A stretch of 64,000 bases of DNA from contig NW_027266319.1 in assembly GCF_022045235.1 (NCBI RefSeq), positions 41,540,001-41,604,000 on the forward strand, given 5' to 3'. This document shows positions 2,176-28,236 of this stretch, one piece after another. A program made the translations under genes and the position numbers. The DNA is from Haliotis cracherodii (taxonomy: Eukaryota). The notes beneath the pieces are model-generated. The model did no database searches and had not been told where the DNA came from. It worked only from the letters and a program-made list of their open reading frames with translations. How positions within the stretch are numbered: position 1 is the stretch's first letter; each line of letters starts with the position of its first letter.

Positions 2176-2349
2176 GTTTGGCGCCGCACCCAGCAATATT
2201 TCAGCTATATGGCGGCAGTCTGTAAATAATTGAGTCTGGACCAGACAATCCAGTGATTGACATCATGAGTATCGATCCGCGCAATTGGGATACGATGACA
2301 TGCATCAACCAAGTCAGCGAGCCTGACGACCCGATCCCGTCAGTCGCCC
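2176..2349 (-). mobile_element. Family A SINE, 3' part, interrupted by the Ginger element
   Basis: Reverse complement of the 911-1166 family. It continues at 17217-17270 on the other side of the transposon. Confidence 0.85.
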
Positions 2350-2586
2350 TGTTACGACGTAAATTGTAATAACGCGGTAAATTGTAATAAACTGCGGTAA
2401 AATGTAATAACACTGCGGTAAAATGTAATTCTGCGGTAAATTGTAATACATACTGCGGTAAATTGTAATAACTTCACTGCGGTAAATTGTAATAAAAACT
2501 GCGGCAAATTGTAATAACTTAAACTGCGGTAAATTGTAATAAAACTGCGGTAAATTGTAATAACCATTGCGGTAAATTGTAATAAC
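2350..2586 (+). repeat. Left TIR with 11 copies of the GCGG(T/C)AAATTGTAAT motif
   Basis: Reverse complement of 16975-17211 with 2 mismatches by eye. The motif recurs every ~19-24 bp. Confidence 0.92.
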
Positions 2587-4360
2587 ATCTCCTAATCCTT
2601 CCGATTTCAAACTGAATTCAAGTTCCAGTGTTTGTTGGACCTTAACATGATCAATTCCAACCTCCAGCATGTTTAAGAAAATATAAAAAAGCGATTTTGT
2701 TTCAATTTCTATCATTTCTATTGAAACACAGGTGCGGCAAATTGTAACAAACTGTGGCAAATTGTAATACCAAGTGCGGTAAATTGTAATAACATCTCCT
2801 AATCCTTCCGATTTCAAACTGAATTCAAGTTCCAGTGTTTGTTGGACCTTAACAAGATCAATTCCAACCTCCAGCATGTTTAAGAAAATTCAAAAAAGCG
2901 ATTTTGGTTCAATTTCTATCATTTCTATTGAAACACTGGTTCGGCAAATTGTAACAAACTGCGGCAAATTGTAATACCAAGTGCGGTAAATTGTAATAAC
3001 ATCTCCTAATCCTTCCGATTTCAAACTGAATTCAAGTTCCAGTGTTTGTTGGACCTTAACAGAGATCAATTCCAACCTCCAGCATGTTTAAGAAAATAAA
3101 AAAAAGCAATTTTGTTTCAATTTCTATCATTTCTATTGAAACACTGGTTCGGCAAATTGTAACAAACTGCGGCAAATTGTAATACCAAGTGCGGTAAATT
3201 GTAATAACATCTCCTAATCCTTCTGATTTCAAGCTGAATTCAAGTTCCAGTGTTTGTTGGACCTTCACATGATCAATTCCAACCTCCAGCATGTTTAAGA
3301 AAATAAAAAAATCCGATTTTGTTTCAATTTTTATCATTTCTATTGAAACACAGGTGCGGCAAATTGTAACAAACTGCGGCAAATTGTAATACCAAGTGCG
3401 GTAAATTGTAATAACATCTCCTAATCCTTCCGATTTCAAACTGAATTCAAGTTCCAGTGTTTGTTGGACCTTAACAGAGATCAATTCCAACCTCCAGCAT
3501 GTTTAAGAAAATAAAAAAATCCGATTTTGTTTCAATTTCTATCATTTCTATTGAAACAATGGTGCGGCAAATTGTAACAAACTGCGGCAAATTGTAATAC
3601 AAAGTGCGGTAAATTGTAATAACATCTCCTAATCCTTCCGATTTCAAACTGAATTCAAGTTCCAGTGTTTGTTGGACCTTAACAAGATCAATTCCAAGCT
3701 CCAGCATGTTTAAGAAAATTCAAAAAAGCCATTTTGTTTCAATTTCTTTCATTTCTATTGAAACACTGGTTCGGCAAATTGTAACAAACTGCGGCAAATT
3801 GTAATACCAAGTGCGGTAAATTGTAATAACATCTCCTAATCCTTCCGATTTCAAACTGAATTCAAGTTCCAGTGTTTCTTGGACCTTAACAAGATCAATT
3901 CCAACCTCCAGCATGTTTAAGAAAATAATAAAAGCGATTTTTTGTCTATTCTATCATTTCTATTGAAACACAGCTGTGGCAAATTGTAATACCAAGTGCG
4001 GTAAATTGTAATAACATCTCCTAATCCTTCCGATTTCAAACTGAATTCAAGTTCCAGTGTTTGTTGGACCTTAACAAGATCAATTCCAACCTCCAGCATG
4101 TTTAAGAAAATAAAAAAAGCGATTTTGTTTCAATTTCTATCATTTCTATTGAAACACAGGTGTGGCAAATTGTAACAAACTGCGGCAAATTGTAATACCA
4201 AGTGCGGTAAATTGTAATAACATCTCCTAATCCTTCCTATTTCAAACTGAATTCAAGTTCCAGTGTTTGTTGGAACTTAACAAGATCAATTCCAACCTCC
4301 AGCATGTTTAAGAAAATTAAAAAAAGCGATTTTGTTTCAATTTCTATCATTTCTATTGAA
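2575..4360 (-). repeat. Left subterminal satellite array, ~9 x ~207-bp units
   Basis: CCAGCATG recurs at ~2664, 2871, 3079, 3286, 3494, 3701, 3908, 4093 and 4299 (one unit is shortened). The array is inverted relative to the right array. Confidence 0.95.
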
Positions 4361-4484
4361 AGACTCAGTCTCGACGACATATTAAAACATTCCAGAATGT
4401 TTATAATGTTTTAATGTGTTTAATATTTTTTAAGCGTAGTCTGAAATGAAAGTCACCAGTTTGAACAAAACTCGAGTGAGAAAT

Positions 4485-4617
4485 GGCGATTTCTTGTTAT
4501 TGGTTTCATTGGTCGGTCAAAGTTGGCGAAAGGACCTTCTGACGACACCCGTAATGTGATGTCCTTAGATCTTTGATGAGCGTTACCGATAAATAAGATC
4601 TGATTTTTATGCGGTTA
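4485..4617 (+). mobile_element. Diverged terminal fragment of the MITE family seen at 50030-50628
   Basis: TGGTCGGTCAAAGTTGGCGAAAGGACCTTCTGACG...AGATCTGATTTTTATG aligns by eye to 50500-50628. Confidence 0.65.
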
Positions 4618-5844
4618 ATAATAAACTGTTACATTTTGTATCACTTTGCCATCGATTTTTAATATGCTCGTTGCAATTGTCAAAGTCAAAAACCCTAATG
4701 AGATCCTATCTACATGGTCACACCCGGACTGGTGATTGTTAAGAACACAAATCCTATTTACATTCTGACAACATGGCAGTCTACATTCATTTACAATACA
4801 ACCTTATTATTAGCGGTATCATCCTCTCATTAATTCTTCCAAAACAGATAACGTCTGTAATTTTCAATTAAAGTCAGAAAAATGACACCTGGAATGAAAT
4901 CAAACTTGGTTGTTTGCAACGTAATATTAGCGGGATCATTACGGTCGTTGTCATGTGATCGACGAAATAAACCAAAGTGCCAAAAAAAACAGATCATGAA
5001 ACACATGTCGTCTGACGGTTGTCGTGTCGGATAATTATTTATCCTTTGATCGTAATTACAATCAAAGAATCCGTCGGGGTGCGATCGTGCGCTTGGGGTA
5101 AATTTGCGTCTCATTCCTTTACCTTTGCCCAGTCCACCTGCATAATTACTTCACTAAATACACTTGGAAGGACAACCCTGAATAAACAATGATCAGTGAC
5201 ACTGATTAGTGACAATATCCCATAAATCTGTTGCTGATTGGATAGAGCAACATGTAAAACTCTTTGGGGCACCTTTCGCTACACCATTATTGTGTCAGCC
5301 GAAGATTTTACAATTCCCATAGCATACAACCCAGCAACCAGTCAGCCGAAAATTTGATCTCCAGTGATATCATTCTTCATCGGATGTGAGGATTTTCAGT
5401 AAGAGATTACCCGTTTGCAGAACAGTTCCTCATAAGGTGTGAGCAACTTTCAGAAAAGGATTACCAATTAGCAGAACAGTTCTTCATCGCACAACACCAC
5501 GCAGTAAGTCGGCCATCTTTCTGTATATGTAATGGAGTTTTAATATATATTATATTGCTATGTAACGAACTTTGCTTTTCAGTGTACTTTAAAACAAATA
5601 ATTCGGTATCTTGAGAAATATAGCTTTCTTAATGTTAATAGTAATGCTTTTCTAATATTAATGTGGAATCTGACTGCTAGTTTCTAATCTTTATAATATC
5701 TTTTTGTGAGCCACATAAAAATCTGTTTCGGAAAAATGGATGGAGATTGATTATAATCTGGCACTTTGAATGTTGATGATACTGTTTCAAACCTTTAATA
5801 ACAAAGTGGCCGATCTCCGCTCTAAATATAAGGCTTTTCAAATA

Positions 5845-6140
5845 TCCGCGGCAGCCTTCCTCTATAGAAAAAGTTTTCTAATATCTATGTTTAATGATAT
5901 TGATAGGTTGCAACCTTTCGCAAAGCGGCAGCCTTCCGCTATAGAAATAGTGATTTTTCTAATATCTGTGTTTAATCATATTGATAGTTTCTAACCTTTA
6001 GCAAAGCGGCAGCCTTCCGCTATAGAAATAGTGCTTTTTCTAATATCAGTGTTTAATCATATTGATAGTTTCTAACCTTTAACTAAGCGGCAGCCTTCCG
6101 CTATAGAAATAGTGCTTTTCTAATATCTGTGTTTAATGAT
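5845..6140 (+). repeat. ~81-bp tandem repeat (~4 copies) inside the transposon
   Basis: GCGGCAGCCTTCC recurs at ~5848, 5925, 6006 and 6087, with a further partial copy at ~6404. Confidence 0.85.
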
Positions 6141-6212
6141 GCTATAGAAGTCTTCAAATCACTGATGATATCAGGATAATATTCAGCTTTTAATCCTTTC
6201 TAACCTTTAGCG

Positions 6213-6388
6213 GGGGCACGGGTGGCCCAGTCGTCCAAGGCGCCGCGATTCGCTTTGCAGAGTTGCGTCCCTTGGGCACATCAGAAACCTATGATTGTGG
6301 GTTCGAATGTTTCCTCCCACATTGAGCTGAAACGCCGTGTTATAACTGTAATAATGTTGAAAGCGGCGTTATACCCAACTCACTCACT
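6213..6388 (+). mobile_element. tRNA-derived SINE (family B) inside the transposon
   Basis: A-box-like GTGGCCCAGTCG, B-box-like GGTTCGAAT, and the tail GCGGCGTTATACCCAACTCACTCACT. Related pieces occur at ~1797-1860, 33290-33490 (-), 35400-35610 (-) and 49370-49545 (-). Confidence 0.7.
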
Positions 6389-8962
6389 CTAACCTCAAGC
6401 ACAGCGGCAGCCTTTTGCTATATGAATGATGTGACGTTTGTTTTTCATATTGATGTTTTAATGAAACCGAACGTTGCAATCATTTCACATAACCATACAT
6501 CATAACAATTGGTCTTCTGATATTATCTGAGGGAATAATGTCACTGAAAAATAAAGTAGCTAATACAACACATCCGCTAGTTTAGTATAGTTCAAAGCTT
6601 ATTTTGCTTGAAACACAGGTTTTATTTAATTTATATCTTTTTCTGTAGCCTAATTCTGAGTATTTCTAACTAATTACAATTAGCTAGATGTATTTGGTCA
6701 AGACATTAAATGTTGATTTCTTATAGTATTTGTTATTAATTAAAATCGTGCAATTTTCGCGGCTTGTATTTTCATATGAAGGTTCAATAACAAAGGTTAT
6801 AAAAACAATGAGATGATTTACTTAATTTGTGATTAAAGTATGTGTCAATATTGCCACTTTTTAGAATCACCAAATCTTGTTCTGGATGTATGTTGGTGTA
6901 TGAGGTGATGTTGAAAGTGAACCTGTGCCTTCGTTCTCTGTGATAGAACAAAGTCAACTTTCCGCAAACATGCTATGATTGAAAATGTTTGATTAGTTAT
7001 TAGAAAAAAATATACCAGTATATAACACTATTGTGTCGGAGTAGAGAAGTTATTTTCATCAAACGAACGTCTTTCTTTGATATTATTTATACAGTCAGTC
7101 TATACAGACCCAACGCCACTTTTAACAATATTTCAGTTATATGACGGCGTTAAAGTCTATTAAGTCTCCTAGAACTTGTCCATTACCATAGCAAGTAAAA
7201 GTTTTGAAAGCAATTTCTACTCCACTGTTTAACAACTGGGGTATCTGACAACAAATGGGGTTTTGACCAATTGGAATATGCCAATGAACCGATGTATAAC
7301 GAAATATATACAGTACTCTGCATAGACGCCCGTCTGTATTTTGGAAAGTATATGCTTTTGTCTGACTCTGAAAACACTCAGTAAATATTTAGAATAGAAT
7401 CAGATCAATGCTGACATGTCTTCGTGTTTGTAACTTACTGAACTTTACTCAGTTGATAAATGTAAATTTCATTTATATCAATGTCTGTCCCATCCACTTT
7501 ACTGATCGGAAATTATCTAGAATTGTCCTATCGCAATATTTCCACGCTTGTCAGGCTGACACTTTCTTGAAATACAATCAAAAGTAGTCTGTGTATTATT
7601 GCCTATTGATCCCCTGTTTTATTAACTTATTCTTTACTTTAGTTCTTCAGTCACTATATATTCACTATGATGAATTGCAATTTTCATTGTGTGTATATTT
7701 ATACACTTGTTTCTCTTTCAACCTCTCTACAGAAGGAAATCAATGTAATAATTATTAGATGAATGAAGTTGGTAGTATATTAATCAAGTAATTCAGTTGA
7801 AATATATCCGACCAGATATAACCTGATTTAATCGTTAGGCTCCCAGCAGAGGGCAAGGCGTGAGGCACTAGTTGTTGATAGACATCCGATGGAACAAATG
7901 TGTTAGCAAATAGCTTGGTCACCAAATAATTGGTCACCAAACCTGCTTCACCAACCAATATAGAAAACAAGCATTTACTGCATTGTATTACAGAAGGTAA
8001 AGTTATTAACTTAGAAGTAGAAGTGGACAGCAAATATTGAATACAGGATGCAATGGTAGGCATTGACTGGATTGTCTGGGGTGAGCGAGTGTAGGCGAGA
8101 CATCACAGCAGGCAGAGAACACATGATGGAATCTGTAAACGTCATTACGACAATATTGCCTACATCTCTTCTATTATTAGTATAGTAACTTCTTGTACAT
8201 AGTTTCCATCTTGTTTTATATAATTCTACAAGGTTCTGATCCGAATTACAGCGTCTTGTTTTACTCAATTCTTATGTACTTAAACTTATATATCCGATTT
8301 TCTATCGAAATGCTTTTCAATAATTTACAATCTGCAAACATCCCCCCATCCATAAAACCTTAATGTACTTAAAGTTGCTGAGGTTACACATTGCATTTAA
8401 AGCAACGCATCTTACAATATATAGAGAGGTTCTGTCATTTTAGTGGCTACACATTCAGTTTCTTTTGCATTAATTTATCCACAAACACACAGACCACGCC
8501 TTCTAGCGGGGAGCTTTAGACGCGTGTGTCACATTGCCCTGAAACACTGATTTCGTATCGTTGTCTAAAGTGTTTTTGTGTTTACGATTAAATAAGCAGA
8601 TTGTGAAGTTATTTTTGTTACTTTTTAAATCAGAATCGACGATGATTTTTACACCCTGTTTTTTCATGTTATTTCCCCCATAAATTATATTCCCTACATA
8701 ATATCTAAATCACGCGCTGTCTTCTCCGTTTCAATAAATTGTTAAGTTGATGCTTTTTTATGTAAAATTTAGACATTAAATTAAATATTCGACGTTTACT
8801 TCTAATTTAACATGACTTTACTTTTACATACATTTGCGTCCATTTGAATTCACAAGTAAGTTGCTACTTTCTTCCAGTGTTGCCAAAGTTGCTCATTGGT
8901 GCGCGAAGGATGTCCAACTGACCCCGGTTTTGTTCAAAGGACGTTCACGTACATTTTCAACC

Positions 8963-11554
8963 ATGCATGCACTCGTTGTAGCAGTTCTGTGCTGTTTGAC
9001 TTTGATTAACTGTAACGCGGCAGAAACGAAACGCAAATATACGCATAGCTTTGATGAAGAAACATATGATACTATTGTGTTACTCGTGCAAGGTAATTTT
9101 GAAACACCGGTCGCCGAAAGGACAAGAGTGCAGCGAAATGCCATTGTTAGATACTGGAGAAGAAAACACGACTTCTCTACAGGACCCGAGCCAAGCAACA
9201 TATTGTACTTTAGAGGAAAACCAGTCTTAAAACGAAAGGAAGTTGCAAAGCTTGTCGAAAATGTATTTCACAACCAGAAATCAGCAGGCTACAGAAAGTT
9301 ATGGCATTTGGCAGCTGATTCTTTGTCAGGGCTTACAGAGACCGCAGTACGGAACGAACTACGCACGAAAGAGAAATATTCCATTCACTCTGCCAAGTTT
9401 ACAAATAAAGCTATCATCAGACCAGTGAGAGCAAAGTGTGTCCAATCACACCACCAAGTTGACCTCGTAGATTTTAGCAAAAGTGCTGTTCGGTGGAAAG
9501 GGAAAACATATAAATTCGTCCTGTCTCTTGTAGATGTGTTCAGTAGATATATATGGCTTGTGGCATTGCAAACAAAGAAAAGCAAATGTGTAGCCAGTGC
9601 TCTGCGGGTGATCTACGAAGAACATGGACCACCTAACAAGTTACAAATGGACCAGGGTGTCGAATTTAAAGGACATGTAAATGAACTTTGTAAAACCCTA
9701 AAAATCAAACCCATACGCAGTAGACCTTACCACCCTCAATCTCAAGGAAAGGTGGAGAGATCCCATAGACAATTGAAAAAGAAAATAATGTATGATTTTG
9801 TAACTATGGGCGCCAAGGGCGTCAACTGGGCGTCACATTTGCGAAGATATGCCTCAATACTGAATAACGAAAAGAAAGAATGTTTAGGATGGCAGAGTTC
9901 CTTTGAAGTGTATTTCGGAAGAAAATCTAACACGGCTTTAGACGTTGATTCAGATGATTTCAATGCTGATATGATGATTGAAAATATTCATGAGCCTAAC
10001 GCAAAGGACAGGTTGAAGCAGAGTAAGTATGTTACTCGGACTAGACATCGGGCTGAAGTTGCTACAAAGAAAACCGACAGACTCAGTATACAAAGACAAC
10101 GAAGACTGCATCCGCCCTCGGTGTACAATGTAGGCGATGATGTTTTATGCAAATATGGTTCCAAGAAGGGAAAACTCGCCCCTAAAAAACAGTACGTTGT
10201 AAAAGGAAGGATTCTTGCACGCAGGTTGAAATCGTCTATGTATAAGATTTCATTCACAAATCCTATTACAGGAAAAGAGGACACGCCTGAATGGATTTCA
10301 GTTGATAGGTTGTCAAGTACCACAATTGATGAAGAGGTAAAACGAAAACAGAGGGCTTCCTCGAGACTACAGCGCAGACATCATCGAGCAAAGTATCAAA
10401 TACCATTATTGGACACAGACAGGCCATTTGCATTACAAGGTGACATCGTGTATGACACTCCGGGAAACGGTAACTGTCAGTTTGCAGCCTTGTGCCATCT
10501 TTTATCTAAAATTGGTATATTCAGATCGCCCAGGACACTTCGAGAACAGGTTGTCAGTTACCTCCTTGAACATCCCTACACTTCAGATGGATCCCCCTTG
10601 GAACTTTTCGTGGGCGAAGACTGGGATACATACATATCCGGTATGTTAGAGGAAGGTACCTACGGAGATCACATAACACTGCAAGCAGTCTCAGATATGT
10701 TTAATGTTGATATTATCGTGCACTCATCGCTTGGCGGTGATGCTACTGTAAACATCGTTCCTGCATACAGTGTAGCAACCCAAACAATCAGTCTTGGCCA
10801 TTTTGCTGAAGAAGAAGGGGAACACTATGTTGCTCTACAACTACATGAAACCCAAAGTGAAGATCAGCCACGAGACGGGGAAGGAAACAGAAACTTGCCA
10901 AGACAAGTCTTTGACAGCGCAAATAGCGGCGACGAAGAACACAACTTATCTCGACAGCATCATTCGCAATGTGATGATGATGAGTTTTTAGACATGCAAG
11001 GGAACATAAATGAAGGCTTCAACAGAACCAACAGCAGCGATGAAGAACAAGGTCATTCTCCGAGTAAGGATCGAGAGCCATTGGACATGCAGGGGGACCT
11101 AAATGAAGGCTTTTACAGTACCAACAGCAGCGATGAAGAAGTATTCCTCTCATGTCGAAAAGACAAGATGCCACAATATGATACGCAGGTTGCATTCACT
11201 GATCTGCCAAACGAGGTGGTGCTTCTAATCATTGAAGTATCTTTACAGCTAGCCCAGCAGTCGTCTGACAGATTATTGTGCAAGACTGTTACATCTTTCC
11301 TGCAAGTGTCCCATCAGTTCCATCAACACACAAGATCATTTCTCCATCTGCGACCACGCATTTATTGCCCACACATTACTATTTCAAGAACCGTTAGTGT
11401 GCGTAGAATCATAATGCACTATGGAAAAAGTAGCGGTGTTGCAATAGAACTCAAAAGAATAATTAGCCATAGAAAGTGGATCAACGCATGGCTACTTCTA
11501 GAAGAGAATGCGTTCGAATGGTATGCAATAATAGACATATTTTGGAAAAAGTAG
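8963..11554 (+). CDS. Ginger-type transposase: DDE integrase + SH3-like + OTU cysteine protease + F-box-like motif
   Basis: The frame is open from 8834; the first ATG is at 8963. Integrase motifs: QVDLVD (D at 9461), LQMDQGVEF (D at 9650), PYHPQSQGKVERSH (E at 9755). OTU motifs: DTPGNGNCQFAAL (C at 10475), GTYGDHITLQA and EHYVAL (H at 10823). F-box-like FTDLPNEVVLLII at ~11195. The true start is uncertain. Confidence 0.9.
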   Translation: MHALVVAVLCCLTLINCNAAETKRKYTHSFDEETYDTIVLLVQGNFETPVAERTRVQRNAIVRYWRRKHDFSTGPEPSNILYFRGKPVLKRKEVAKLVENVFHNQKSAGYRKLWHLAADSLSGLTETAVRNELRTKEKYSIHSAKFTNKAIIRPVRAKCVQSHHQVDLVDFSKSAVRWKGKTYKFVLSLVDVFSRYIWLVALQTKKSKCVASALRVIYEEHGPPNKLQMDQGVEFKGHVNELCKTLKIKPIRSRPYHPQSQGKVERSHRQLKKKIMYDFVTMGAKGVNWASHLRRYASILNNEKKECLGWQSSFEVYFGRKSNTALDVDSDDFNADMMIENIHEPNAKDRLKQSKYVTRTRHRAEVATKKTDRLSIQRQRRLHPPSVYNVGDDVLCKYGSKKGKLAPKKQYVVKGRILARRLKSSMYKISFTNPITGKEDTPEWISVDRLSSTTIDEEVKRKQRASSRLQRRHHRAKYQIPLLDTDRPFALQGDIVYDTPGNGNCQFAALCHLLSKIGIFRSPRTLREQVVSYLLEHPYTSDGSPLELFVGEDWDTYISGMLEEGTYGDHITLQAVSDMFNVDIIVHSSLGGDATVNIVPAYSVATQTISLGHFAEEEGEHYVALQLHETQSEDQPRDGEGNRNLPRQVFDSANSGDEEHNLSRQHHSQCDDDEFLDMQGNINEGFNRTNSSDEEQGHSPSKDREPLDMQGDLNEGFYSTNSSDEEVFLSCRKDKMPQYDTQVAFTDLPNEVVLLIIEVSLQLAQQSSDRLLCKTVTSFLQVSHQFHQHTRSFLHLRPRIYCPHITISRTVSVRRIIMHYGKSSGVAIELKRIISHRKWINAWLLLEENAFEWYAIIDIFWKK

Positions 11555-12039
11555 TTTTAAAAAGACATTGCCATCATATATTGAGCGAGACTGACGATTT
11601 TGAAACACCAGGGTTCGTCGAATTGACATCTCTGGCATCGTTGTCACATGGTTGGTTCATCGTTCATTTTGTCCATCATTCTGTATCTCTCTCTTTTCCG
11701 TTATCGAATATTTGGATATCAACAATTTCATTGCCTCTTTTTGAACAGTTCATATGTGAGTTTAATGTCTGGACATGTGTCATTTTAGTCTTTTCAGGGA
11801 GGGCTGTTCAAAATTAAATTAAATGGGGACATTATAAATGTATGGGATATTTGAAGGATCGTGTTTCATGTCAAAACATGTAATCTTATATATTTTCGAT
11901 GGTGGTACCAGTGTGAAGTATAGGAATATCAGGGTTCGACTTCCATGTAGAATACTTGTACATTTTCAACGCACATATATTCCTTCCGTTCAATTCGCAG
12001 CAGTTTTTTGCAGTTTGTAAACTTTTGCCGCATCTGATT

Positions 12040-15000
12040 AGAATAATAGAAATTGAAGCAAAATCGCTTTGTCTTCTTTTTCTAAAACATGCTGGATGTT
12101 GTCATTGATCATGTTAAGGTCCAACAAACACTGGAACTTGAATTCAGTTTGAAAAAGGAAGGATTAGGAGATGTTATTACAATTTACCGCACTTGGTATT
12201 ACAATTTGCCGCAGTTTGTTACAATTTGCCGCACCTGTGTTTCTATAGAAATGATAGAAATTGAAACAAAATCGCTTTTTTTATATTTTCTTAAACATGC
12301 TGGAGGTTGGAATTGATCATGTTAAGGTCCAACAAACACTGGAACTTGAATTCAGTTTGAAATCGGAAGGATTAGGAGATGTTATTACAATTTACCGCAC
12401 TTGGTATTACAATTTGCCGCAGTTTGTTATTATTTGTCGCACCTGTGTTTCAATAGAAATGATAGAAATTGAAACAAAATGGCTTTTTTTTTATTTTCTT
12501 AAACATGCTGGAGGTTGGAATTGATCTTGTTAAGTTCCAACAAACACTTGAACTTGAATTCAGTTTGAAATCGGAAGGATTAGGAGATGTTATTACAATT
12601 TACCGCACTTGGTATTACAATTTGCCGCAGTTTGTTACAATTTGCCGAACCTGTGTTTCAATAAACATAATAGAAATTGAAACAAAATCGCTTTTTTTAT
12701 TTATTTAAACATGCTGGAGGTTGGAATTGATCTTGTTAAGTTCCAACAAACACTGGAACTTGAATTCAGTTTGAAATTGGAAGGATTAGGAGATGTTATT
12801 ACAATTTACCGCACTTGGTATTACAATTTGCCGCAGTTTGTTACAATTTGCCGAACCTGTGTTTCAATAAACATAATAGAAATTGAAACAAAATCGCTTT
12901 TTTTATTTATTTAAACATGCTGGAGGTTGGAATTGATCATGTTAAGGTCCAACAAACACTGGAACTTGAATTCAGTTTGAAAAAGGAAGGATTAGGAGAT
13001 GTTATTACAATTTACCGCACTTGGTATTACAATTTGCCGCAGTTTGTTACAATTTGACGCACCTGTGTTTCAATAAACATAATAGAAATTGAAACAAAAT
13101 CGCTTTTTTTATTTATTTAAACATGCTGGAGGTTGGAATTGATCTTGTTAAGTTCCAACAAACACTGGAACTTGAATTCAGTTTGAAATTGGAAGGATTA
13201 GGAGATGTTATTACAATTTACCGCACTTGGTATTACAATTTGCCGCAGTTTGTTACAATTTGCCGCACCTGTGTTTCAATAAACATAATAGAAATTGAAA
13301 CAAAATCGCTTTTTTTATTTATTTAAACATGCTGGAGGTTGGAATTGATCTTGTTAAGTTCCAACAAACACTGGAACTTGAATTCAGTTTGAAATCGGAA
13401 GGATTAGGAGATGTTATTACAATTTACCGCACTTGGTATTACAATTTGCCGCAGTTTGTTACAATTTGACGAACCTGTGTTTCAATAAACATAATAGAAA
13501 TTGAAACAAAATCGCTTTTTTTATTTATTTAAACATGCTGGAGGTTGGAATTGATCATGTTAAGGTCCAACAAACACTGGAACTTGAATTCAGTTTGAAA
13601 AAGGAAGGATTAGGAGATGTTATTACAATTTACCGCACTTGGTATTACAATTTGCCGCAGTTTGTTACAATTTGCCGAACCTGTGTTTCAATAAACATAA
13701 TAGAAATTGAAACAAAATCGCTTTTTTTATTTATTTAAACATGCTGGAGGTTGGAATTGATCATGTTAAGGTCCAACAAACACTGGAACTTGAATTCAGT
13801 TTGAAAAAGGAAGGATTAGGAGATGTTATTACAATTTACCGCACTTGGTATTACAATTTGCCGCAGTTTGTTACAATTTGCCGCACCTGTGTTTCTATAG
13901 AAATGATAGAAATTGAAACAAAATCGCTTTTTTTATATTTTCTTAAACATGCTGGAGGTTGGAATTGATCATGTTAAGGTCCAACAAACACTGGAACTTG
14001 AATTCAGTTTGAAATCAGAAGGATTAGGAGATGTTATTACAATTTACCGCACTTGGTATTACAATTTGCCGCAGTTTGTTATTATTTGTCGCACCTGTGT
14101 TTCAATAGAAATGATAGAAATTGAAACAAAATGGCTTTTTTTTATTTTCTTAAACATGCTGGAGGTTGGAATTGATCTTGTTAAGTTCCAACAAACACTT
14201 GAACTTGAATTCAGTTTGAAATCGGAAGGATTAGGAGATGTTATTACAATTTACCGCACTTGGTATTACAATTTGCCGCAGTTTGTTACAATTTGACGAA
14301 CCTGTGTTTCAATAAACATAATAGAAATTGAAACAAAATCGCTTTTTTTATTTATTTAAACATGCTGGAGGTTGGAATTGATCTTGTTAAGTTCCAACAA
14401 ACACTGGAACTTGAATTCAGTTTGAAATTGGAAGGATTAGGAGATGTTATTACAATTTACCGCACTTGGTATTACAATTTGCCGCAGTTTGTTACAATTT
14501 GCCGAACCTGTGTTTCAATAAACATAATAGAAATTGAAACAAAATCGCTTTTTTTATTTATTTAAACATGCTGGAGGTTGGAATTGATCATGTTAAGGTC
14601 CAACAAACACTGGAACTTGAATTCAGTTTGAAAAAGGAAGGATTAGGAGATGTTATTACAATTTACCGCACTTGGTATTACAATTTGCCGCAGTTTGTTA
14701 CAATTTGCCGAACCTGTGTTTCAATAAACATAATAGAAATTGAAACAAAATCGCTTTTTTTATTTATTTAAACATGCTGGAGGTTGGAATTGATCTTGTT
14801 AAGTTCCAACAAACACTGGAACTTGAATTCAGTTTGAAATTGGAAGGATTAGGAGATGTTATTACAATTTACCGCACTTGGTATTACAATTTGCCGCAGT
14901 TTGTTACAATTTGCCGCACCTGTGTTTCAATAAACATAATAGAAATTGAAACAAAATCGCTTTTTTTATTTATTTAAACATGCTGGAGGTTGGAATTGAT

Positions 15001-16670
15001 CTTGTTAAGTTCCAACAAACACTGGAACTTGAATTCAGTTTGAAATCGGAAGGATTAGGAGATGTTATTACAATTTACCGCACTTGGTATTACAATTTGC
15101 CGCAGTTTGTTACAATTTGACGAACCTGTGTTTCAATAAACATGATACAAATTGAAACAAAATCGCTTTTTTTTATTTATTTAAACATGCTGGAGGTTGG
15201 AATTGATCATGTTAAGGTCCAACAAACACTGGAACTTGAATTCACTTTAAAATAGGAAGGATTAGGAGATGTTATTACAATTTACCGCACTTGGTATTAC
15301 AATTTGCCGTGGTTTGTTATAATTTGCCGCACCTGTGCTCAATAGAAATGATAGAAATTGAAACAAAATCGCTTTTTTTTATTTTCTTAAACATGCTGGA
15401 GGTTGGAATTGATCCTGTTAAGTTCCAACAAACACTGGAACTTGAATTCAGTTTGAAATAGGAAGGATTAGGAGATGTTATTACAATTTACCGCACTTGG
15501 TATTACAATTTGCCGCAGTTTGTTACAATTTGCCGCACCTGTGTTTCAATAAACATAATAGAAATTGAAACAAAATCGCTTTTTTTATTTATTTAAACAT
15601 GCTGGAGGTTGGAATTGATCTTGTTAAGTTCCAACAAACACTGGAACTTGAATTCAGTTTGAAATCGGAAGGATTAGGAGATGTTATTACAATTTACCGC
15701 ACTTGGTATTACAATTTGCCGCAGTTTGTTACAATTTGACGAACCTGTGTTTCAATAAACATGATACAAATTGAAACAAAATCGCTTTTTTTAATTTATT
15801 TAAACATGCTGGAGGTTGGAATTGATCATGTTAAGGTCCAACAAACACTGGAACTTGAATTCAGTTTGAAAAAGAAAGGAATAGGAGATGTTATTACAAT
15901 TTACCGCACTTGGTATTACAATTTGCCGCAGTTTGTTACAATTTGCCGAACCTGTGTTTCAATAAACATAATAGAAATTGAAACAAAATCGCTTTTTTTT
16001 ATTTATTTAAACATGCTGGAGGTTGGAATTGATCATGTTAAGGTCCAACAAACACTGGAACTTGAATTCAGTTTGAAAAAGGAAGGATTAGGAGATGTTA
16101 TTACAATTTACCGCACTTGGTATTACAATTTGCCGCAGTTTGTTACAATTTGCCACACCTGTGTTTCAATAGAAATGATAGAAATTGAAACAAAATCGCT
16201 TTTTTTTATTTTCTTAAACATGCTGGAAATTGGAATTGATCTTGTTAAGGTCCAACAAACAGTGGAACTTGAATTCAGTTTGAAATAGGAAGGATTAGGA
16301 GATGTTATTACAATTTACCGCATTTGGTATTACAATTTGCCGCAGTTTGTTATAATTTGCCGCACCTGTGTTTCAATAGAAATGATAGAAATTGAAACAA
16401 AATCGCTTTTTTTATATTTTCTTAAACATGCTGGAGGTTGGAATTGATCTTGTTAAGTTCCAACAAACACTGGAACTTGAATTCAGTTTGAAATAGGAAG
16501 GATTAGGAGATGTTATTACAATTTACCGCACTTGGTATTACAATTTGCCGCAGTTTGTTACAATTTGACGAACCTGTGTTTCAATAAACATGATACAAAT
16601 TGAAACAAAATCGCTTTTTTTTAATTTCCTTCTTGAACATGCTGGAGGTTGGAATTGTTCATGGAATTTG
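12040..16670 (+). repeat. Right subterminal satellite array, ~22 x 206-208-bp units
   Basis: CATGCTGGAGGTTGG recurs every 206-208 bp from 12088 to 16426, with a partial copy at 16638. Each unit has three TTACAATTT(A/G)CCGCA motifs. Confidence 0.95.
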
Positions 16671-16765
16671 AATTTGGTTCATAGTAAACGCAAATATCCA
16701 GAATTTAATGTTCATTAGTGTTTATCAATCAATCATTTCAAAGTCAGGAATGTGATTTCCAAACA

Positions 16766-16834
16766 TTACTTACTTACTTACTTAATTTGGAGATTTAACG
16801 TGCGCTTTCCGACTGATGCGTATTTCGCGCACGG
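16766..16834 (-). mobile_element. ~70-bp retroposed element with (TAAG)n tail
   Basis: 12-bp TSD GATTTCCAAACA at 16754-16765 and 16835-16846. A second copy is at 28167-28236. Confidence 0.8.
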
Positions 16835-16907
16835 GATTTCCAAACAGCTTGGTCGCACATTTTATACTTCATGCAAGTTTCTTTGTATATTTGCAAATCA
16901 ATAATCT

Positions 16908-17211
16908 TTATTACAATTTACCGCAGTGGTTATTACAATTTGCCGCAGTTTTTATTACAATTTACCGCAGTGAAGTTATTACAATTTACCGCAGTGGTTA
17001 TTACAATTTACCGCAGTTTTATTACAATTTACCGCAGTTTAAGTTATTACAATTTGCCGCAGTTTTTATTACAATTTACCGCAGTGAAGTTATTACAATT
17101 TACCGCAGTATGTATTACAATTTACCTCAGAATTACATTTTACCGCAGTGTTATTACATTTTACCGCAGTTTATTACAATTTACCGCGTTATTACAATTT
17201 ACGTCGTAACA
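16908..17211 (-). repeat. Right TIR plus extra motif copies (14 motifs)
   Basis: 16975-17211 is the reverse complement of 2350-2586. Three additional motifs lie at 16908-16975. Confidence 0.92.
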
Positions 17212-17216
17212 CGCCC

Positions 17217-17270
17217 CTTACGACAAGCATTGGTTACTGAAGACTTATTCTAACCCGGATCTTCAGTGGT
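17217..17270 (-). mobile_element. Family A SINE, 5' part (continues 2176-2349)
   Basis: CTTACGACAAGCATTGGTTACTGAAGAC...CCGGATCTTCA is the reverse complement of the SINE head. Confidence 0.85.
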
Positions 17271-18599
17271 AAATGTCTAAAATATGCCTAGATTGTGACA
17301 TATTCGCTCGTGATATTTTAACACAAACTATTGACACACGAGACGCAACTGTGATACCATTCGGCACAAGTGTGTGAGTGCATGTAGATAAATGCCACAA
17401 TCAACAATAATCCTAGTATATAACGGTGGCCTGTAAATATCAAAACAGTGGTTAATATAATGAGCAACGTCCCACGCCGTCGGGGTACAAATGACAAGCT
17501 ATCAACCGGACCATCCGATCCATTCTCATCGCCTCGTATGATAGACATATAGTGCTAAGAGCCTTTTTCATCCTTGAAATAAAGAAGGGAACATTGTTAG
17601 TGAGAGAATGTGGATTTACCTCGCACAAACTTAGCCGGGCCACGGTTTCATATATTGTGGGAATTGATGCGGCCAACCCGTAGTTATATGGCGTATTGAC
17701 CTACTTGCCCATGCATGCACAACGCATGTCATCTTGGTGAACTATGTCATGTATGTGAGTATGCTATAAGTGATTATAAGTTAATTTGCAATATTCATGG
17801 AAAGATGGAGGAAACCTACGAAACATTGATAGACACATAATTATGAATATAGGGTATGTTTTCACAACTATGCCTATCGAATTCACATATTGTCAGTTGG
17901 AATCCTGTTTCTCGATTACAATATGTGTTTCACGACATACAAAACATCGCTAGGACTCCTTGTTGATGTTTCGTTTAACACCATATGCATTATTTTGTAT
18001 CCCCGAAATCAGAATTTTTGCAAGCTTCTTCGAAAACATGTTTTTTAAGTGTTCTCTTTGCATGTAAGCAGCTGAATCTCTGCAGAGTTAACATAAATAA
18101 CATTAACAGTAATTCAAAGTTAACATATTGTTTTTAGCTTAAACAAAACAAAAGCGACAATCCCTTTCCATACAATAGAATTCTCTGCTAAAAGCGGAGC
18201 CTATTGTAGCATTCCGACAATACCATGAGCATGTGTTTATGAATCACTATCAAATAGTGAATCACTGCCAAAATCAGTAAACGCGCTCTCGTGTCACCAG
18301 ATTGTCTGGACCAGACTCCATTGTGTACAGGCCTACAGAGTATTGAAGTATGGCTGGGCCCGGCGTTATGTAACACACCAACACCTATTTTTTTTATACG
18401 AATTGTGTGAATTCATGCACTATTGCATCGCAACCCCGATTACCAACAGGGGCACCTGTTTGTCAAACAGTTGCTCCTGTATTGGCACCTGTCCGCCACA
18501 ACCACTATGTGTTCTCACGATTTCACGAACATATAATGTTGTTTCAGGGACATCTGCAGGTTTCAGTCCAGAATATCCCACAAACTCAAATTGATTTCT

Positions 18600-19760
18600 T
18601 GCTAGTCGCCCACTTATTGTTCCCTTATGAGTTCCTATTCTGTGTATTCTGGTACATCTGAAGTATCAACATTTATAGCATTAACATCAACAACAGTGGC
18701 GTCAACAGTATCTGGCATAACCTCAACAGGAGTGTCAATATCAGGCACGATATCTGCAGCATGAACATCAGCAGATACAACAACAGTGGCGTCAACAACA
18801 TCTGGAATGAACAGGAGCTTCACCATCAGGTACGACATCGGTAGTGTGAACATCATCAGGCACATCAAGAGTGCCGTCAACAGCATCTGGCATACTATCA
18901 TCAGCAAAGGGTTCAAGAAGTCTTTATAGGTCTTCTTCGTTCGTGGCTTGAGATATGCGGTTGGGGAACTCGTCTGGTAAAGAAGACTTCAGCCTACTTG
19001 CTAAGAAGACATCTTAATGGTTTCATGATATGATGTATCCATTGAACGTTGGACGAAGCGTATGCCATATCTATGCCCTCAGCCTGAGTTTCAAGTCGCC
19101 GCTGCTCCTCTCCACAGATCCCTGGCCCCGAGGATGTCGGGGACGTCCATTCACCAACACATTCATCCAAGTTCGAGAATAATCTGAGCAGTAAACTCTC
19201 TTCCGTTGTCTCATTGCAGAATGTGGGGTGCTCCAATGTCCAGAAATATGAATAAAAGTTCACGAGCGACTTCAGCTACAGCCTTGGTTTTCAAAGGTCG
19301 AATAACATTGGTGAGGTATTCTTGGTAATGTAGAAGAATCGGTAAGCGCCATCATTGACGGTTATCATGTCAATTAAGTCGACTTGACCTCTCTAGTTCA
19401 AATCCCTGGCAGATAGAGGTTTACAACCACACCTGAAGCTGTCTCCTTCCTACTACATTTATCAACACACCGCCCACAGCGACTGATGTATGATGAAATC
19501 AAACTTCTGGAGATATTGGCATACTTGTCTAACAGTTTCTTGTGCGTCTTCTTCTCACCACCATGGAGAGTTTCTGTGTGTGCATGTCTGATAAACTCTA
19601 CTACTGTTTGCTTGGTGACCAAGTACTTGCCGTCCTTCCTCGTCACTTTGTCAACTCCATCCATGGAAACAAGGGGATACTTAGTCAAGAAGTGGTATTC
19701 CTCCCTTGGCATGGGTTGTCCAGTCTTCCCTCGCTTGGGGACGTCAATAACTTACTTTCC
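18600..19760 (-). pseudogene. Decayed KRBA2/SCAND3-like (Ginger2) integrase
   Basis: An HHCC finger (HAHTETLHGGEKKT...YANISR...CGRC) is followed, across frameshifts and stops, by RGQVDLIDM, RPLKTKAVAEVARELL, GAPHILQ*DNGREF and GRPRHPRGQGSVERS. An acidic low-complexity tail lies at 18635-18916. Confidence 0.85.
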
Positions 19761-22049
19761 ACAGGGCGAGCAATCAGATACGTTGTCATCTATAACAGAA
19801 TGTGGGAAATGACAATGTTTTGGCCAGAAGTTTCACTTAACTCATACTGTATACGTAAAACACCAAATAAACGCGCGCATTGAGATGAAAGGTGAACTTG
19901 TTTACGTTCTACATCGCAGAAGGTTCTTTCAGACATTCATTCCAAAAAGGCTTTGATTGTTCGTTGAAATGTGTTTTTTACAGGACTAAAGGACAGAAAT
20001 GTGTAAATTCACCGAGTACTACCAATTAAAATACAAAAATGCAACTTCCATTTAACCTGAGAACTTCTGCTGCATATTAACAACCGTAGAGGGAATTTCT
20101 ACCTATTAGAGGAATATACTGTGTCCCCACTACACTTTAAACCTACATTTATATCTTCGCAAATGCGAAAGAAACAGATTATTCAAATTTTGACTGATAT
20201 AAAGATGACTATGAGTTTAACTCTCTCACACAAACACACCAATCAGCAGCCTGAATCATCCCTTTACAAACCGTGACGGGTCACATCAATAAATGTTGGA
20301 TTTTATACATATAATACACTGTACCTGACCGGTGCTTTTTCTATCCATAATAATTAATCGCTACTTTGTTTGTCCATAATAATTGACCGTTACTTTGTCT
20401 GTCCATAATAATTGACATGCCTTCATCGGAATTATTATTGTATATCTAAAAAAGAAAATACTATCAATGTTTAAGCTTACACCTTCTTCGTGGGTATACT
20501 TTACGGGGTTTTTTAAACAGTGTCAGTCTCTCGATCTTCTTAACCAAAACATGTAGCCAATGTTACCTGTGAATTCCGTTGTTTTTATTATTAAAGTTAT
20601 AGTACCAGGGATATCTGAACAGTTCTAAGTCGAACACATTGACTGCGTTGATAGAGTTGGCTGTTAATTATTTATCAACATCATCCCTTGCGAGATTCAC
20701 ACACTTTAGCTAGCGATACTGGAGTGCACAAGTACCATGTATTTTATGAACATTTCAATTGAAGCAGTGGCAGTGGAAGGTCTTGATCTTGGGTCATCTT
20801 CGAGGCTCCGCCTTTCCCTCTTGAACTCCACTGTCCACCCCTCTTGACAGCGACAGAGAAAGGAGCACCACCCGCTACAGTGACACTACACCGTGATGTT
20901 GTCAACATGCATGGTTGTTGAAGTTAGAGCTTTCAGTTGGGGATACTTGATGACTATGGGGTAGCCAATTTTGTCCATTTTAATCAACAGATAATACCTA
21001 CTCACTTCACTGCCTGCAGAAATATGCTGCCTGGTTGTGTGTGGTTGTCTCAAAAGCAGCCTGTAAGTGTGGACAATATTACCCATCACGTGTGTAATAA
21101 CTTTCCAATATTGGCACATGTGCATTACAGCAATTCTCGGTGCTGATTTGACAACTGAAACCATATGACCCGACAATGCTCCATTGTTGAGATAAAATAC
21201 GTTTGATTACATTACTTCAGCGAACTTTCTCTAAAAAATGTCCATGAGTGATGTATAGAATAACCCACTCGAAACTCGGAATTACGAATTATTTGTCTTC
21301 GTGAATGAGTCCTGTAAGTCCTCGCCAAAGGCTTGGGATGAACACCATTCATTCCCATGGGACAGTTAGTCCGTATTTCGGTTATTCTAGATCTCTTAGT
21401 GATGTACGTCCTACATGCAGACTGCTGAGGGTGTTAACGTCCTTTACCACTGTGGTAAAACCACTGCGCACAGTACAGTACTGACAGATCAAGAATTATT
21501 TTTTTTTATTCTAAAAGTTATTTTGTCCCAATATATGGAGAGGGTTGATTGGTCAAGTTAACCATTCAAACTTTATTGCAATGTTCAATATGATTTAAAA
21601 AATGATTTATTCAATATGCACTGTTGTCATATTTTACTTTCCTTTATAAACAATCGCTATCACATCACAGCAGGAGAAACACGATGTGCTCTCCAGTAAT
21701 ATTATTAGTACGTAAAAAGAAACTATGTAAATGAAATTTAAAGATTGTAGCTACCCTATCTGTGTTAACTACTTTACTCAAAAAAGGTTGCGAGTTTTTA
21801 CCAGTTCCACTTGTTAGCATGAGTTGTTAGTGGTATGTGCAGCTCGCTGCTCTCATTATGCGGATGTGGGTCGATACATTTCACCAGATGCACGGATTAC
21901 CACTTATGACGAAACCACTATCCTGTTGATTGTCATGAAAGTGTTTGCTCATTTCCTTGCCAGCACATACTTGTAGATTTATGTGATAAAATGTAGATGA
22001 TGAACCGTGAGAAAATTTAGATTATGGATCTGTAAGACAGATTGTAATT

Positions 22050-24895
22050 TATTATGGTAAAATGGGAGACAAATTGTAAATAATGTTAGTGAACCGTTAG
22101 ACATTGTTGTTTATGATGGTGAACTATCCGCCAGATTGTAGGTTATGATGGTGAACCGTTAGACCGATTGTAGGTTATGATGTAGAACCGTCAGACAAAT
22201 GTGAAGATTACGTTCGTGAACCATGAGACAGATTGTAGGTTATGATGGTGCACTGTAAGACAAGTTGTAGGTTATGATGGTGAACTTTGAGACAGGTTGT
22301 AGGTTAGGATGGAACCGTGAGACAGGTTGGTGGTTATGATGTTGAACCTTGAGACAGGTTGTAGGTTATGATGGTGCACTGTAAGACAAGTTGTAGGTTA
22401 TGATGGTGAACTTTGAGACAGGTTGTAGGTTATGATGGAACCGTGAGACAGGTTGTAGGTTATGATGTTGAACTGTGAGACAGGTTGTAGGTTATGATAG
22501 TGAACTGTAAGACAAGTTGTAGGTTATGATAGTGAACTGTAAGACAAGTTGTAGGTTATGATGGTGAACTGTGAGACAGATTGTAGGTTATGATGGTGAA
22601 CTGGGAGACAGGTTGTAGGTTATGATGGTGAACTGTGAGACAGATTGTAGGTTATGATGGTGAACTGTGAGACAGGTTGTAGGTTATGATGGTGAACTGT
22701 GAGACAGATTGAAGGTTATGATGGTGAACTGTGAGACAGGTTGTAGGTTATGATGGAACCGTGAGACAGGTTGGTGGTTATGATGTTGAACCGTGAGACA
22801 GGTTGTAGGTTTTGATGGTGCACTGTAAGACAAGTTGTAGGTTATGATGGTGAACTTTGAGACAGGTTGTAGGTTATGATGGAACCGTGAGACAGGTTGT
22901 AGGTTATGATGTTGAACTGTGAGACAGGTTGTAGGTTATGATGGTGAACTGTGAGACAGGTTGTAGGTTATGATGGTGAACTGTGAGACAGATTGTAGGT
23001 TATGATGGTGAACTGTGAGACAGGTTGTAGGTTATGATGGTGAACTGTGAGACAGGTTGTAGGTTATGATGGTGAACTGTGAGACAGATTGTAGGTTATG
23101 ATGGAACTGTGAGACAGGTTGTACGTTATGATGGTGAACTGTGAGACAGGTTGTAGGTTATGATGGTGAACTGTGAGACAGGTTGTAGGTTATGATGGTG
23201 AACTGTGAGACAGATTGTAGGTTATGATGGTGAACTGTGAGACAGGTTGTAGGTTATGATGGTGAACTTTGAGACAGGATGTAGGTTATGATGGTGAACT
23301 GTGAGACAGGTTGTAGGTTATGATGGAACTGTGAGACAGGTTGTAGGTTATGATCGTGAACTGTGAGACAGGTTGTAGGTTAGGATGGTGAACAGTGAGA
23401 CAGGTTGTAGGTTATGATGGAACTGTGAGACAGGTTGTAGGTTTTGATAGTGAACTGTGAGACAGGTTGTAGGTTAGGATGGTGAACTGTGAGACAGGTT
23501 GTAGGTTATGATCGTGAACTGTGAGACAGGTTGGAGGTTATGGTGGTGAACCGTGAGACAGGTTGTAGTTGATGAAGGTGAACTGTGAGACAGGTTGTAG
23601 GTTATGATGGTGAACTGTGAGACAGGTTGTAAGTTATGATGGTGAACCGTGAGACAGGTTGTAGGTCATGATGGTGAACTGTGAGACAGGTTGGAGGTTA
23701 TGATAGTGAACAGTAAGACAGGTTGTAGGTTATGATGGTGAACTGTGAGACAGGTTGTAGGTTATGATAGTGAACTGTGAGACAGGCTGTAACTTATGAT
23801 GGTGAACTTTGAGACAGGTTGTAGGTTATGATGGAACCGTGAGACAGGTTGTACGTTATGACGGTGAACTGTGAGACAGGTTGTAGGTTATGATGGTGAA
23901 CTGTGAGACAGGTTGTACGTTATGATGGTGAACTGGGAGACAGGTTGTAGGTTATGATAGTGAACCGTGAGACAGGCTGTACGTTATGATGGTGAACTGT
24001 GAGACAGGTTGTAGGTTATGATGGTGAACTGTGAGATAGGTTGTAGGTTATGATGATGAACTGTGAGACAGGTTGTAGGTTATGATGGTGAACTGTGAGA
24101 CAGGCTGTAACTTATGATGGTGAACTGTGAGACAGGTTGTAGGTTATGATGGTGAACTGTGAGACAGGTTGTAGGTTATGATGGTGAACTGTGAGACAGG
24201 TTGTAGGTTATGATGTTGAACTGTGAGACAGGTTGTAGGTTATGATGGTGAACCGTGAGACAGGTTGTAGGTTATGATGGTGAACTGTGAGACAGGTTGG
24301 AGGTTATGATGTTGAACTGTGAGACAGGTTGTAGGTTATGATGGTGAACTTTGAGACAGGTTGTAGGTTATGATAGTGAACTGTGAGACAGGTTGTAGGT
24401 TATGATGGTGATGTGTGCGACAGGTTGTAGGTTATGATGGTGATGTGTGAGACAGGTTGTAGTTTATGATAGTGAACTGTGAGACAGGCTGTAGGTTATG
24501 ATGGTGATGTGTGAGACAGGTTGAAGTTTATGATAGTGAACTGTGAGACAGGCTGTAGGTTATGATGGTGAACTGTGAGACAGGTTGTAGGTTATGATGG
24601 TGAACTGGGAGACAGGTTGTAGGTTATGATGGTGAACCGTGAGACAGGCTGTAGGTTATGATAGTGAACTTTGAGACAGGTTGTAGGTTATGATGGTGAA
24701 CTGTGAGACAGGTTGTAGGTTATAATTGTGAATTGTGAGACAGGTTGTAGGTTATGATGGAACTGTGAGACAGGTTGTACGTTATGATGTTGAATTGTGA
24801 GACAAGTTGTAGGTTATGATGGTGAACCGTGAGACAGGTTGGTGGTTATGATGGTGAACTGTGAGGCAGATTGTAGAAATTTTTGGGTGAACCAT
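22050..24895. repeat. ~32-bp minisatellite (GTGAGACAGGTTGTAGGTTATGATGGTGAACT)n
   Basis: Direct tandem repeats over ~2.8 kb, degenerate at the left edge. Confidence 0.95.
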
Positions 24896-26050
24896 GAGAA
24901 CGAACGGGACCACAAAGGGAGTTCTCTATAGCCATAATTTCGTTACAAGCGTGTTCGTTATATCCATCAATTTTATATGATACACATCAAATGGTCGGGA
25001 CCAAAAGTTATAATCAAACTGTCAATCTTCTATAATAATTCTGAAGGCAACCAAGGAAAGCTTTATTAAATAGTGTTAGAGAATATATGAGACAAGTGGA
25101 GTTAACGACATGTGGATCTGGAAAACTGAATAAGATTTACTTGAACTCACACAATATCAGACAAGGAAAAACATTTTGAATTTTACCATTTTGATTTTTC
25201 CACCCTTTGTACAACTCTACCTCATGACACTCTCTAATCAATAAGGTTCTTTGCTTCCAAGAAAGGGTTTAAGAAATATAATGCTATAACATTTGATGGA
25301 TGTGATGAAAATAGATTTTCTCTGAAATATGCAGATACCCCAACACATGAGTTGCTGGTCTTCCTGCTTCACTTCATGGGAATTCCCTAATTATGACACG
25401 TCACTTGTCAACATGAAGCATGCTTCTACCCCATTATATGACCTTTTCAGGGACTAATTGGCACACACACATTTTCAGTGAACCATTCATAACATTTTCA
25501 TCATTCTGCCTTTTACGTCCTTTGGAATTTATTGAGGCAGATATTCTGACGTTTGGAATCCAGCAGCGTCGAGGAATGATGGGGTGTTTTTCAGCTACAG
25601 TGGCATTGCCTTTCGGGCGGAATACCACAACTCTATATCCTTTTGATACAATTAACAGATAGTAAACTTGATACTCACCAGTTGCATTTTATATAACAAA
25701 TATTTATATTATTCCTTTAAATAAGCAACAACATAGGGTTCTCTTATTTTGTTTATTGGCAGAGATTCACATGAAAGTGAGAGCAATATTTGTATTCTTT
25801 TATGAACAAGTGTGCCTCACTTACCCCTGAAAGCTGTGTACGTTAAGGACAGTATTATGCATGTACTTATATAACGATTTCGTACTTCATCATGATCAAC
25901 GACAGTAGTGTACACTAAAGACTGTATTGGGTTTTTTTCAAGAATAGAGATGTACCCCTGTGTCTATGACATAGTATTGAGCCTTGCTGAAAGCGTTTAA
26001 CTCTTATCTGGGTTATATCTCAAGAACACGGGTAAACCAAGAATGGCCAT

Positions 26051-28166: not shown

Positions 28167-28236
28167 ACCGTGTGCGAAATGCGCATCAGTCGGAAAGCGC
28201 ACGTAAAATCTCCAACTTAAGTAAGTAAGTAAGTAA
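28167..28236 (+). mobile_element. ~70-bp retroposed element with (TAAG)n tail
   Basis: 9-bp TSD GTGAGGCGC at 28158-28166 and 28237-28245. It matches 16766-16834 on the - strand. Confidence 0.8.

Follow-up and report, generated by a model that had tools for sequence, protein, structure and literature searches.

In a 64,000-nucleotide window of the Haliotis cracherodii genome (assembly GCF_022045235.1, contig NW_027266319.1, positions 41,540,001 to 41,604,000 of the forward strand), we find a cut-and-paste transposon of 14.9 kb (2350-17211) with TGTTA at either end and CGCCC in both flanks. The element is Ginger2-like, its transposase reading frame is intact, and at its ends sites that probably serve the transposase have undergone a genuine Foldback-type expansion. 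The concept is a known one, and we found no report of it for this superfamily. We consider it probable that the ends are jointly explained by a conserved end-recognition motif, amplification of a segment in this lineage, inverted copying of the resulting array to the left end and a drift in array size driven mostly by recombination.

The end motif, TTACAATTT(A/G)CCGCA, is present in 11 copies in the left terminal inverted repeat (TIR) and in 14 copies at the right (at most 3 mismatches), and over the whole element we count 81 exact copies, 104 with at most 1 mismatch and 111 with at most 2. A preliminary description of this DNA had given 11 to 14 copies for the TIRs and roughly 110 for the element, and both figures hold. 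The 49 kb of the window outside the element contain no exact copy. Tandem Repeats Finder reports 22.3 copies with 95% matches for the right array, whose units had been described as amplified clusters of the TIR motif with three motif copies each. Of the 29 full units, all have an exact copy 1 and 27 an exact copy 2, as described, but just 8 have an exact copy 3. The three-motif cluster is indeed there, spanning 60 of 207 bp; the remaining ~147 bp (71% of the unit) is non-TIR sequence, so the unit is not simply an amplified motif cluster. The WATTACA core (W is A or T) is the least variable part of the units, with 2 variant letters in 33 columns versus 54 in 174, and 6 of 206 shifts are equally low. 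Two partial left units were excluded after unit delimitation, and a 185-bp unit (L03) was left out of the column statistics and the tree. We found no further unit copies elsewhere in the window, and an exact 31-nt unit pattern gave 0 matches to metagenome contigs. For a link to the nucleosome repeat, suggested earlier, the similar unit length is the one point in favour; no ~10-bp periodicity of AA/TT/TA stands out in the units (32% of 2000 resamples were equally strong).

The same core recurs at the termini of distantly related elements. Of 80 loci found by a metagenome scan, 32 were taken as relatives by E-value and coverage; the other 48, with 12 viral loci, made up 60 controls. In 53 flanks of the relatives (100.6 kb), clusters of at least three WATTACA cores occur 14 times in the outward orientation seen in the window and 0 times reversed, where 200 resamples gave a mean expectation of 0.005; the 60 control loci and the rest of the window hold none. 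The 12 cluster-bearing loci form four DNA-level groups with 34-47% protein identity to the window transposase, and outside the open reading frame (ORF) only one of them (L002) aligns to the window, at the TIR alone. The first core lies 16 bp from the terminus at both window ends and at 6 of 10 relative ends, the others standing at 15, 25 and 26 bp with one degenerate. Viral contigs yielded distant integrases only (25-32% identity). Judged from the conserved core, its register in distant relatives and its low variability within the units, the motif is likely the end-recognition site of the transposase. The preliminary description had called the arrays transposase-binding; the conserved core and terminus distance speak for this, the binding itself being a prediction from sequence. 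Across the clade, the ends combine a TG(T) terminus with clusters of WATTACA cores that have lineage-specific tails (L002, L016, L019, L026, L001, L009, L012, L013, L024).

Motif-bearing end arrays of ~200 bp were seen in none of these relatives, and on that ground the arrays look like a lineage-specific expansion and not a requirement. L002 (471-4809) looks complete at 4339 bp, with plain motif clusters in TIRs of ~200 bp and no arrays, and a single right-flank base there is consistent with a 5-bp target-site duplication (TSD). Two tandem repeats in other loci were rejected as parallels: a 208-bp tandem in L007 (5911-6419) has a unit without the core, and a 200-bp tandem in L014 (1704-2419) has the core reversed and lies 2.3 kb upstream of the ORF match.

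It had been suggested that the arrays aid end synapsis over 15 kb. As a selected device, about 100 sites would load many transposases and help to pair the ends of a long element, a role also proposed for Galileo and Tetris. The arrays stand at both ends in the correct orientation, motif copy 1 is invariant, and the intact ORF and 99% identical TIRs point to a recent move with the arrays already in place. However, the arrays take up ~6.4 of the 14.9 kb and thus themselves create much of the length to be bridged; they are asymmetric (22 versus ~9 units), most of each unit is non-motif DNA, and the complete 4.3-kb relative has end clusters without them. We therefore regard synapsis as a weak proposal and an unlikely reason for the arrays. 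Still harder to credit is that the unit is a host satellite captured by the transposon and the source of the TIR motif. Unit contigs are abundant, and oyster mobile elements, mostly Helitrons, commonly hold satellite arrays, as mollusc elements often do (PMC8268682), but the window has no unit copy outside the element, and the core keeps its register at the termini of distantly related elements in other hosts, which argues that the motif is ancestral to the element.

The arrays are themselves in motion. Right-array units R01-R07 differ from R09-R15 at 3, 2, 1, 0, 2, 0 and 3 sites at a lag of 1651-1652 bp, against a within-array mean of 10, and 0 of 5000 shuffles of unit order matched this 7-unit run (the shuffle ignores local duplication history). 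The block of 1389 bp carries 4 substitutions and 1 indel between its copies and stops before unit 8: R08 and R16 differ at 15 sites, and lag-8 distances climb to 9-15 past R07/R15. The unit alignment, on which the preliminary description had staked its 8-unit duplication, shows a single duplication that falls short of 8 units. The recurrence at 1652 bp stands, but the higher-order repeat read into it was rejected, the block having only two copies and the match covering 6.7 of 8 units. Other identical stretches, 278-332 bp long, are found at lags of 3, 4, 5, 10 and 11 units. A variant block is common to 15 right-array units and present in no left unit, while left and right TIRs differ at 2 of 237 sites (99% identical); the two arrays therefore turn over separately. 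A tree of the units, which had been called for, recovers this right-end-only subclass. The near-identical 1.4-kb block, the 3-unit repeats and the right-only subclass support unequal exchange, as was proposed, or slippage as the driver of turnover. Such array dynamics are in themselves ordinary.

It is conceivable that the 8-unit duplication, though not the array, is an assembly artefact, for example two haplotypes joined out of register. The 0.36% divergence of the copies is within the allelic range and no read in the examined data spans the block, but the smaller duplications indicate the same process at many scales and the match breaks off within the array without completing a period, and we give an artefact very little weight.

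Public sequencing runs offer a view beyond the single assembly. The ORF region is represented by 0.88-0.92 of its words in 13 of the 23 runs listed, under two species labels. Contigs on 16426-17900 that come from the last unit or the spacer are deeper than flank contigs (114.2 versus 7.27 in run X1, 109.5 versus 10.2, and 194.7 versus 39.6), an excess of several to ~16 times, the latter in X1. Tandem joints that return after ~200 bp are present in three of four runs, under both species labels. Ratios of summed contig depth, unit to TIR, extend from 4-13 (X5) up to 25-89 (X6), depth here being no copy number. Together these data hint that the array end is common to a small family of copies. RNA is on record for none of the runs holding the ORF, which has no bearing on expression. 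Run X12 has a contig that joins opposite strands inside the TIR (17042-17153), compatible with a short non-autonomous copy or with the joining of one TIR to another.

The preliminary description also raised titration. Arrays acting as a sink would capture transposase or attract silencing and so limit activity, and ~90 motif copies do lie far from the cutting sites, with unit contigs much deeper than TIR contigs in the public runs. Fragmented contigs confound the depth ratio, however, which is just 4-13 in X5; we find a sink improbable.

A domain search of the transposase ORF found only rve (integrase core, E 7e-12), rve_3 and OTU (protease, E 6e-10), and the DDE residues D216, D279 and E314 and OTU residues C554 and H670 are present (P0001 numbering). 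The protein runs from a hydrophobic leader through an N-terminal helix-turn-helix (HTH) module, the DDE core, OTU and an acidic linker to an F-box-like conserved C-terminus; the element holds no other non-repeat ORF above 125 aa. An H2C2 zinc finger was not found, nor is any His/Cys conserved across 18 aligned proteins. The N-terminal model (predicted local distance difference test, pLDDT, 94) is a zinc-free helical bundle with an integrase-like HTH. It compares with the N-termini of Ty3 integrase (Z 8.1, root-mean-square deviation (rmsd) 5.7, 117 aligned) and foamy-virus integrase (Z 7.5, rmsd 2.7, 83 aligned), and with HTH DNA-binding domains at Z 6.7 or less. Protein homologues came from a representative library search, and one protein piece, 82% identical, is from Haliotis rubra. 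The C-terminal domain (124 aa, 11180-11551; model pLDDT 93.7) is clade-wide, with an F-box-like start followed by SVRR..G..SGL..W..AWL..WY. Its best structural match has Z 5.4 and Foldseek gave none at E<=0.001; an F-box identity (Atlas 0.85-0.87) is a lead only.

The leader (8963-9022) is signal-peptide-like, which has no ready explanation in a nuclear enzyme. The start context is good (ACCATG), and the next Met is residue 278. A strongly hydrophobic leader stretch occurs in 16 of 21 homologues that have at least 25 upstream residues (for example P0004, P0018 and P0141); at the DNA level, the in-frame leader is hydrophobic in 12 of 18 loci versus 13 of 36 other frames, and it is Met-initiated and open in 9 of the 18 (leaders were noted in L001, L003, L008, L013, L029 and L034). 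Alternatively, the stretch may be the T-rich end of an intron read in frame. We found no literature report of signal peptides in such transposases, most subscription papers lying outside the search.

Several points weigh against the account we prefer. None of the ten relative termini has a full TSD, and four (L009, L012, L013, L024) were chosen by eye. The statistic for core conservation within units is post hoc and marginal, and motif copy 3 has decayed in 21 of the 29 units. That relatives show no arrays is weak evidence, since short-read contigs collapse arrays, and contig depth cannot be converted to copies of the array end. With its low support, the unit tree leaves the left and right arrays unordered and gives no right-to-left direction. 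Finally, a fold similarity of Z near 8 is modest and within the range of common arrangements, and Foldseek with the N-terminal model returned no match at E<=0.001.

We propose a model in which a ~22-bp motif with a WATTACA core would serve as the end-recognition site of a Ginger2-like transposase, as its conservation suggests; the family has some 3-14 copies of it clustered at either end. A ~207-bp segment, comprising three motif copies and ~147 bp of neighbouring DNA, may then have undergone tandem duplication, most probably within the right end; we infer this origin because the edges of the right array are decayed, the inner partial unit having 77% identity and the last unit being divergent. 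The left array begins abruptly, fused to the left TIR via one motif copy in common and without the right-side spacer, and it would have been copied there in inverted orientation by recombination via that common motif. Turnover proceeds separately at each end, through unequal exchange or slippage, with the block offset by 1652 bp as the latest event. The extra sites may be tolerated, or mildly useful as secondary binding sites as in Galileo, and array size would mostly reflect drift from recombination instead of a needed device.

The coordinates of the element are set out in Table 1. Its two flanks, searched separately, run into each other in other copies of a short interspersed nuclear element (SINE)-like repeat, and public contigs continue from 17212 into sequence like the left flank; the 5-bp target duplication is therefore genuine. 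This SINE-like repeat is of high copy number (915-1140, 2209-2349 with 17212-17265, 47712-47924 and 49832-50031), and the element was inserted in one of its copies. The 69-bp piece in the right spacer has a 4-bp tandem tail, is 94% like 28168-28236 and is crossed by contigs of both species labels. An 81-bp tandem of 3.6 copies within the element (5848-6137) has no relation to the end motif. Another integrase-type element, broken and with an H2C2-like finger, lies near the right end (18997-19751, minus strand); we take it to be a classical Ginger2/KRBA2-like element. The region is generally rich in tandem repeats, with unrelated long minisatellites at 22030-24876, 26050-26881, 36559-43043, 43974-45685 and 58619-61940.

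Table 1. Features of the transposon, in window positions
Feature	Position	Strand	Basis or remark
Left TSD, CGCCC	2345..2349	.	Flank comparison and SINE-like repeat copies
Left TIR, 237 bp, 11 motif copies	2350..2586	-	Innermost motif copy doubles as motif 1 of first array unit
Left array, ~9 units in all: 8 anchor-to-anchor (185 bp in one case) and partial units	2587..4365	-	Inverted relative to right array; inner edge abrupt
Transposase ORF, uninterrupted, 863 aa from ATG 8963	8963..11554	+	ORF list, domain search, alignment, models
Decayed partial unit with three degenerate motifs, inner edge of right array	11960..12086	+	77% identity to units
Right array of 22 units (206-211 bp), each with a 60-bp three-motif cluster and ~147 bp non-TIR	12087..16636	+	Anchor-to-anchor
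Duplication copy 1, recent	12104..13492	+	Matches copy 2
Duplication copy 2, recent, 5 differences in 1389 bp	13756..15143	+	Matches copy 1
Spacer from right array to right TIR, with 69-bp retroposon-like piece (16766-16834) and 12-bp direct repeats	16664..16907	+	
Right-end cluster of 14 motif copies; the TIR is its outer 237 bp (16975-17211)	16908..17211	+	2 differences from left TIR
Right TSD, CGCCC	17212..17216	.	Repeat of left CGCCC

Ginger2/TDD elements are defined by TGTNR ends, an H2C2 finger before the core and the target RTATAY (PMC2836005), with a TSD of 4 or 5 bp (also PMC10045372). The present element has TGTTA termini, a 5-bp TSD, a TIR of 237 bp, within the ~45-300 bp of the group, and an integrase-like DDE core without reverse transcriptase or DNA polymerase. 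The H2C2 of the 2010 definition is absent, and for that reason we name the element Ginger2-like and not a Ginger2 member. It further departs from the group in its OTU and F-box-like C-terminus, its kb-scale end arrays and its length (14.9 kb versus 2.7-6.7 kb in the 2010 table, PMC2836005). Its target may differ as well, the AT-rich RTATAY standing against a single GC-rich TSD (n=1). By eye, the QxDL / DVFSRY / SRPYHPQSQG core resembles that of mollusc elements classed as Ginger2 in Repbase, such as Ginger2-1_CGi, -2_CGi, -3_CGi, -1_CySi and -2_TeGr (PMC10045372 supplement). Polinton/Maverick, with a 6-bp TSD, AG..TC ends and a DNA polymerase gene (PMC6839031), is ruled out by the lack of all three, as is IS3EU/GingerRoot by its 6-bp TSD and mostly TA..TA ends (PMC6839031, PMC10045372). 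Ginger1 is defined by a 4-bp CCGG/CCGT TSD and YPYY, H2C2 and GPY/F motifs (PMC2836005). The element is like Ginger1 in its TGT..ACA ends and in the OTU behind the integrase, Ginger1 having a C-terminal OTU or Ulp1 domain; unlike Ginger1, it has a 5-bp TSD and neither YPYY, H2C2 nor GPY/F.

TGT ends, a 5-bp TSD and site length are points on which Tn7-like ends invite comparison. In Tn7-like elements, both ends generally carry arrays of sites, to which TnsB binds (bioRxiv 2021.08.23.457393); an integrase-type DDE enzyme and short inverted sites arrayed in unequal numbers at both ends are shared with our element. Tn7-like elements are bacterial and multi-protein, with 3-4 sites per end, and the analogy is one of end design only. 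Among eukaryotic elements, the Foldback type is marked by long inverted ends within which tandem repeats vary in number, as they do here. In the Drosophila virilis foldback Tetris, ~220-bp repeats (TIR-220) inside the TIRs have 37 bp in common with the outer domain; their number changes through duplication, they grew into long arrays, and they were proposed as extra binding sites and a satellite seed (PMC4079207). Both elements have ~200-bp tandem repeats of varying number within both ends and a stretch in common with the outer TIR. Tetris, however, is non-autonomous, has an 8-10-bp TSD and probably belongs to Mutator, whereas here we see an intact integrase-type ORF and a 5-bp TSD; long free-standing arrays are known for Tetris, and here arrays are known within the element only. 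The transposase of Galileo (P superfamily) also binds to secondary sites that lie in the tandem repeats of its TIRs (PMC3688188). The ends of Galileo are likewise long and internally repetitive, with secondary end-motif copies in tandem, binding being demonstrated for Galileo and suggested here by sequence. Galileo has a P-type transposase with a THAP domain and TIRs of 0.5-1.2 kb, whereas our element combines a zinc-free N-terminus of integrase type with arrays that measure 1.8 and 4.6 kb. Further background came from PMC6431247, bioRxiv 2021.09.26.461848, PMC12628747 and PMC10294476. We found no report of end arrays or binding motifs in Ginger elements, or of this abalone repeat, although Repbase entries and the supplements of PMC2836005 may describe such ends.

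Beyond the particulars of one abalone element, the finding extends Foldback-type ends to an integrase-type superfamily and provides the first candidate recognition motif for these elements that we are aware of. From Tetris and Galileo came the suggestion that surplus transposase sites push end repeats to become satellites; no transposase is known for Tetris, however, and that of Galileo could not be reactivated. Here, an intact ORF, near-identical TIRs and a motif conserved in the family together would make the effect of unit number on transposition measurable. It is tempting to go further and see a distinct lineage of marine-invertebrate transposons of integrase type. Its ends would be Tn7-like, with TGT followed by ~22-bp sites arrayed in a fixed register and read by a zinc-free HTH; the protein would have an OTU/F-box-like tail and a conserved signal-peptide-like leader, and in this host ~100 amplified sites would tune transposase loading and seed free satellite. 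This stronger reading seems unlikely to us. If true, the element would offer an autonomous system in which to test directly how arrays of binding sites turn into satellite DNA.

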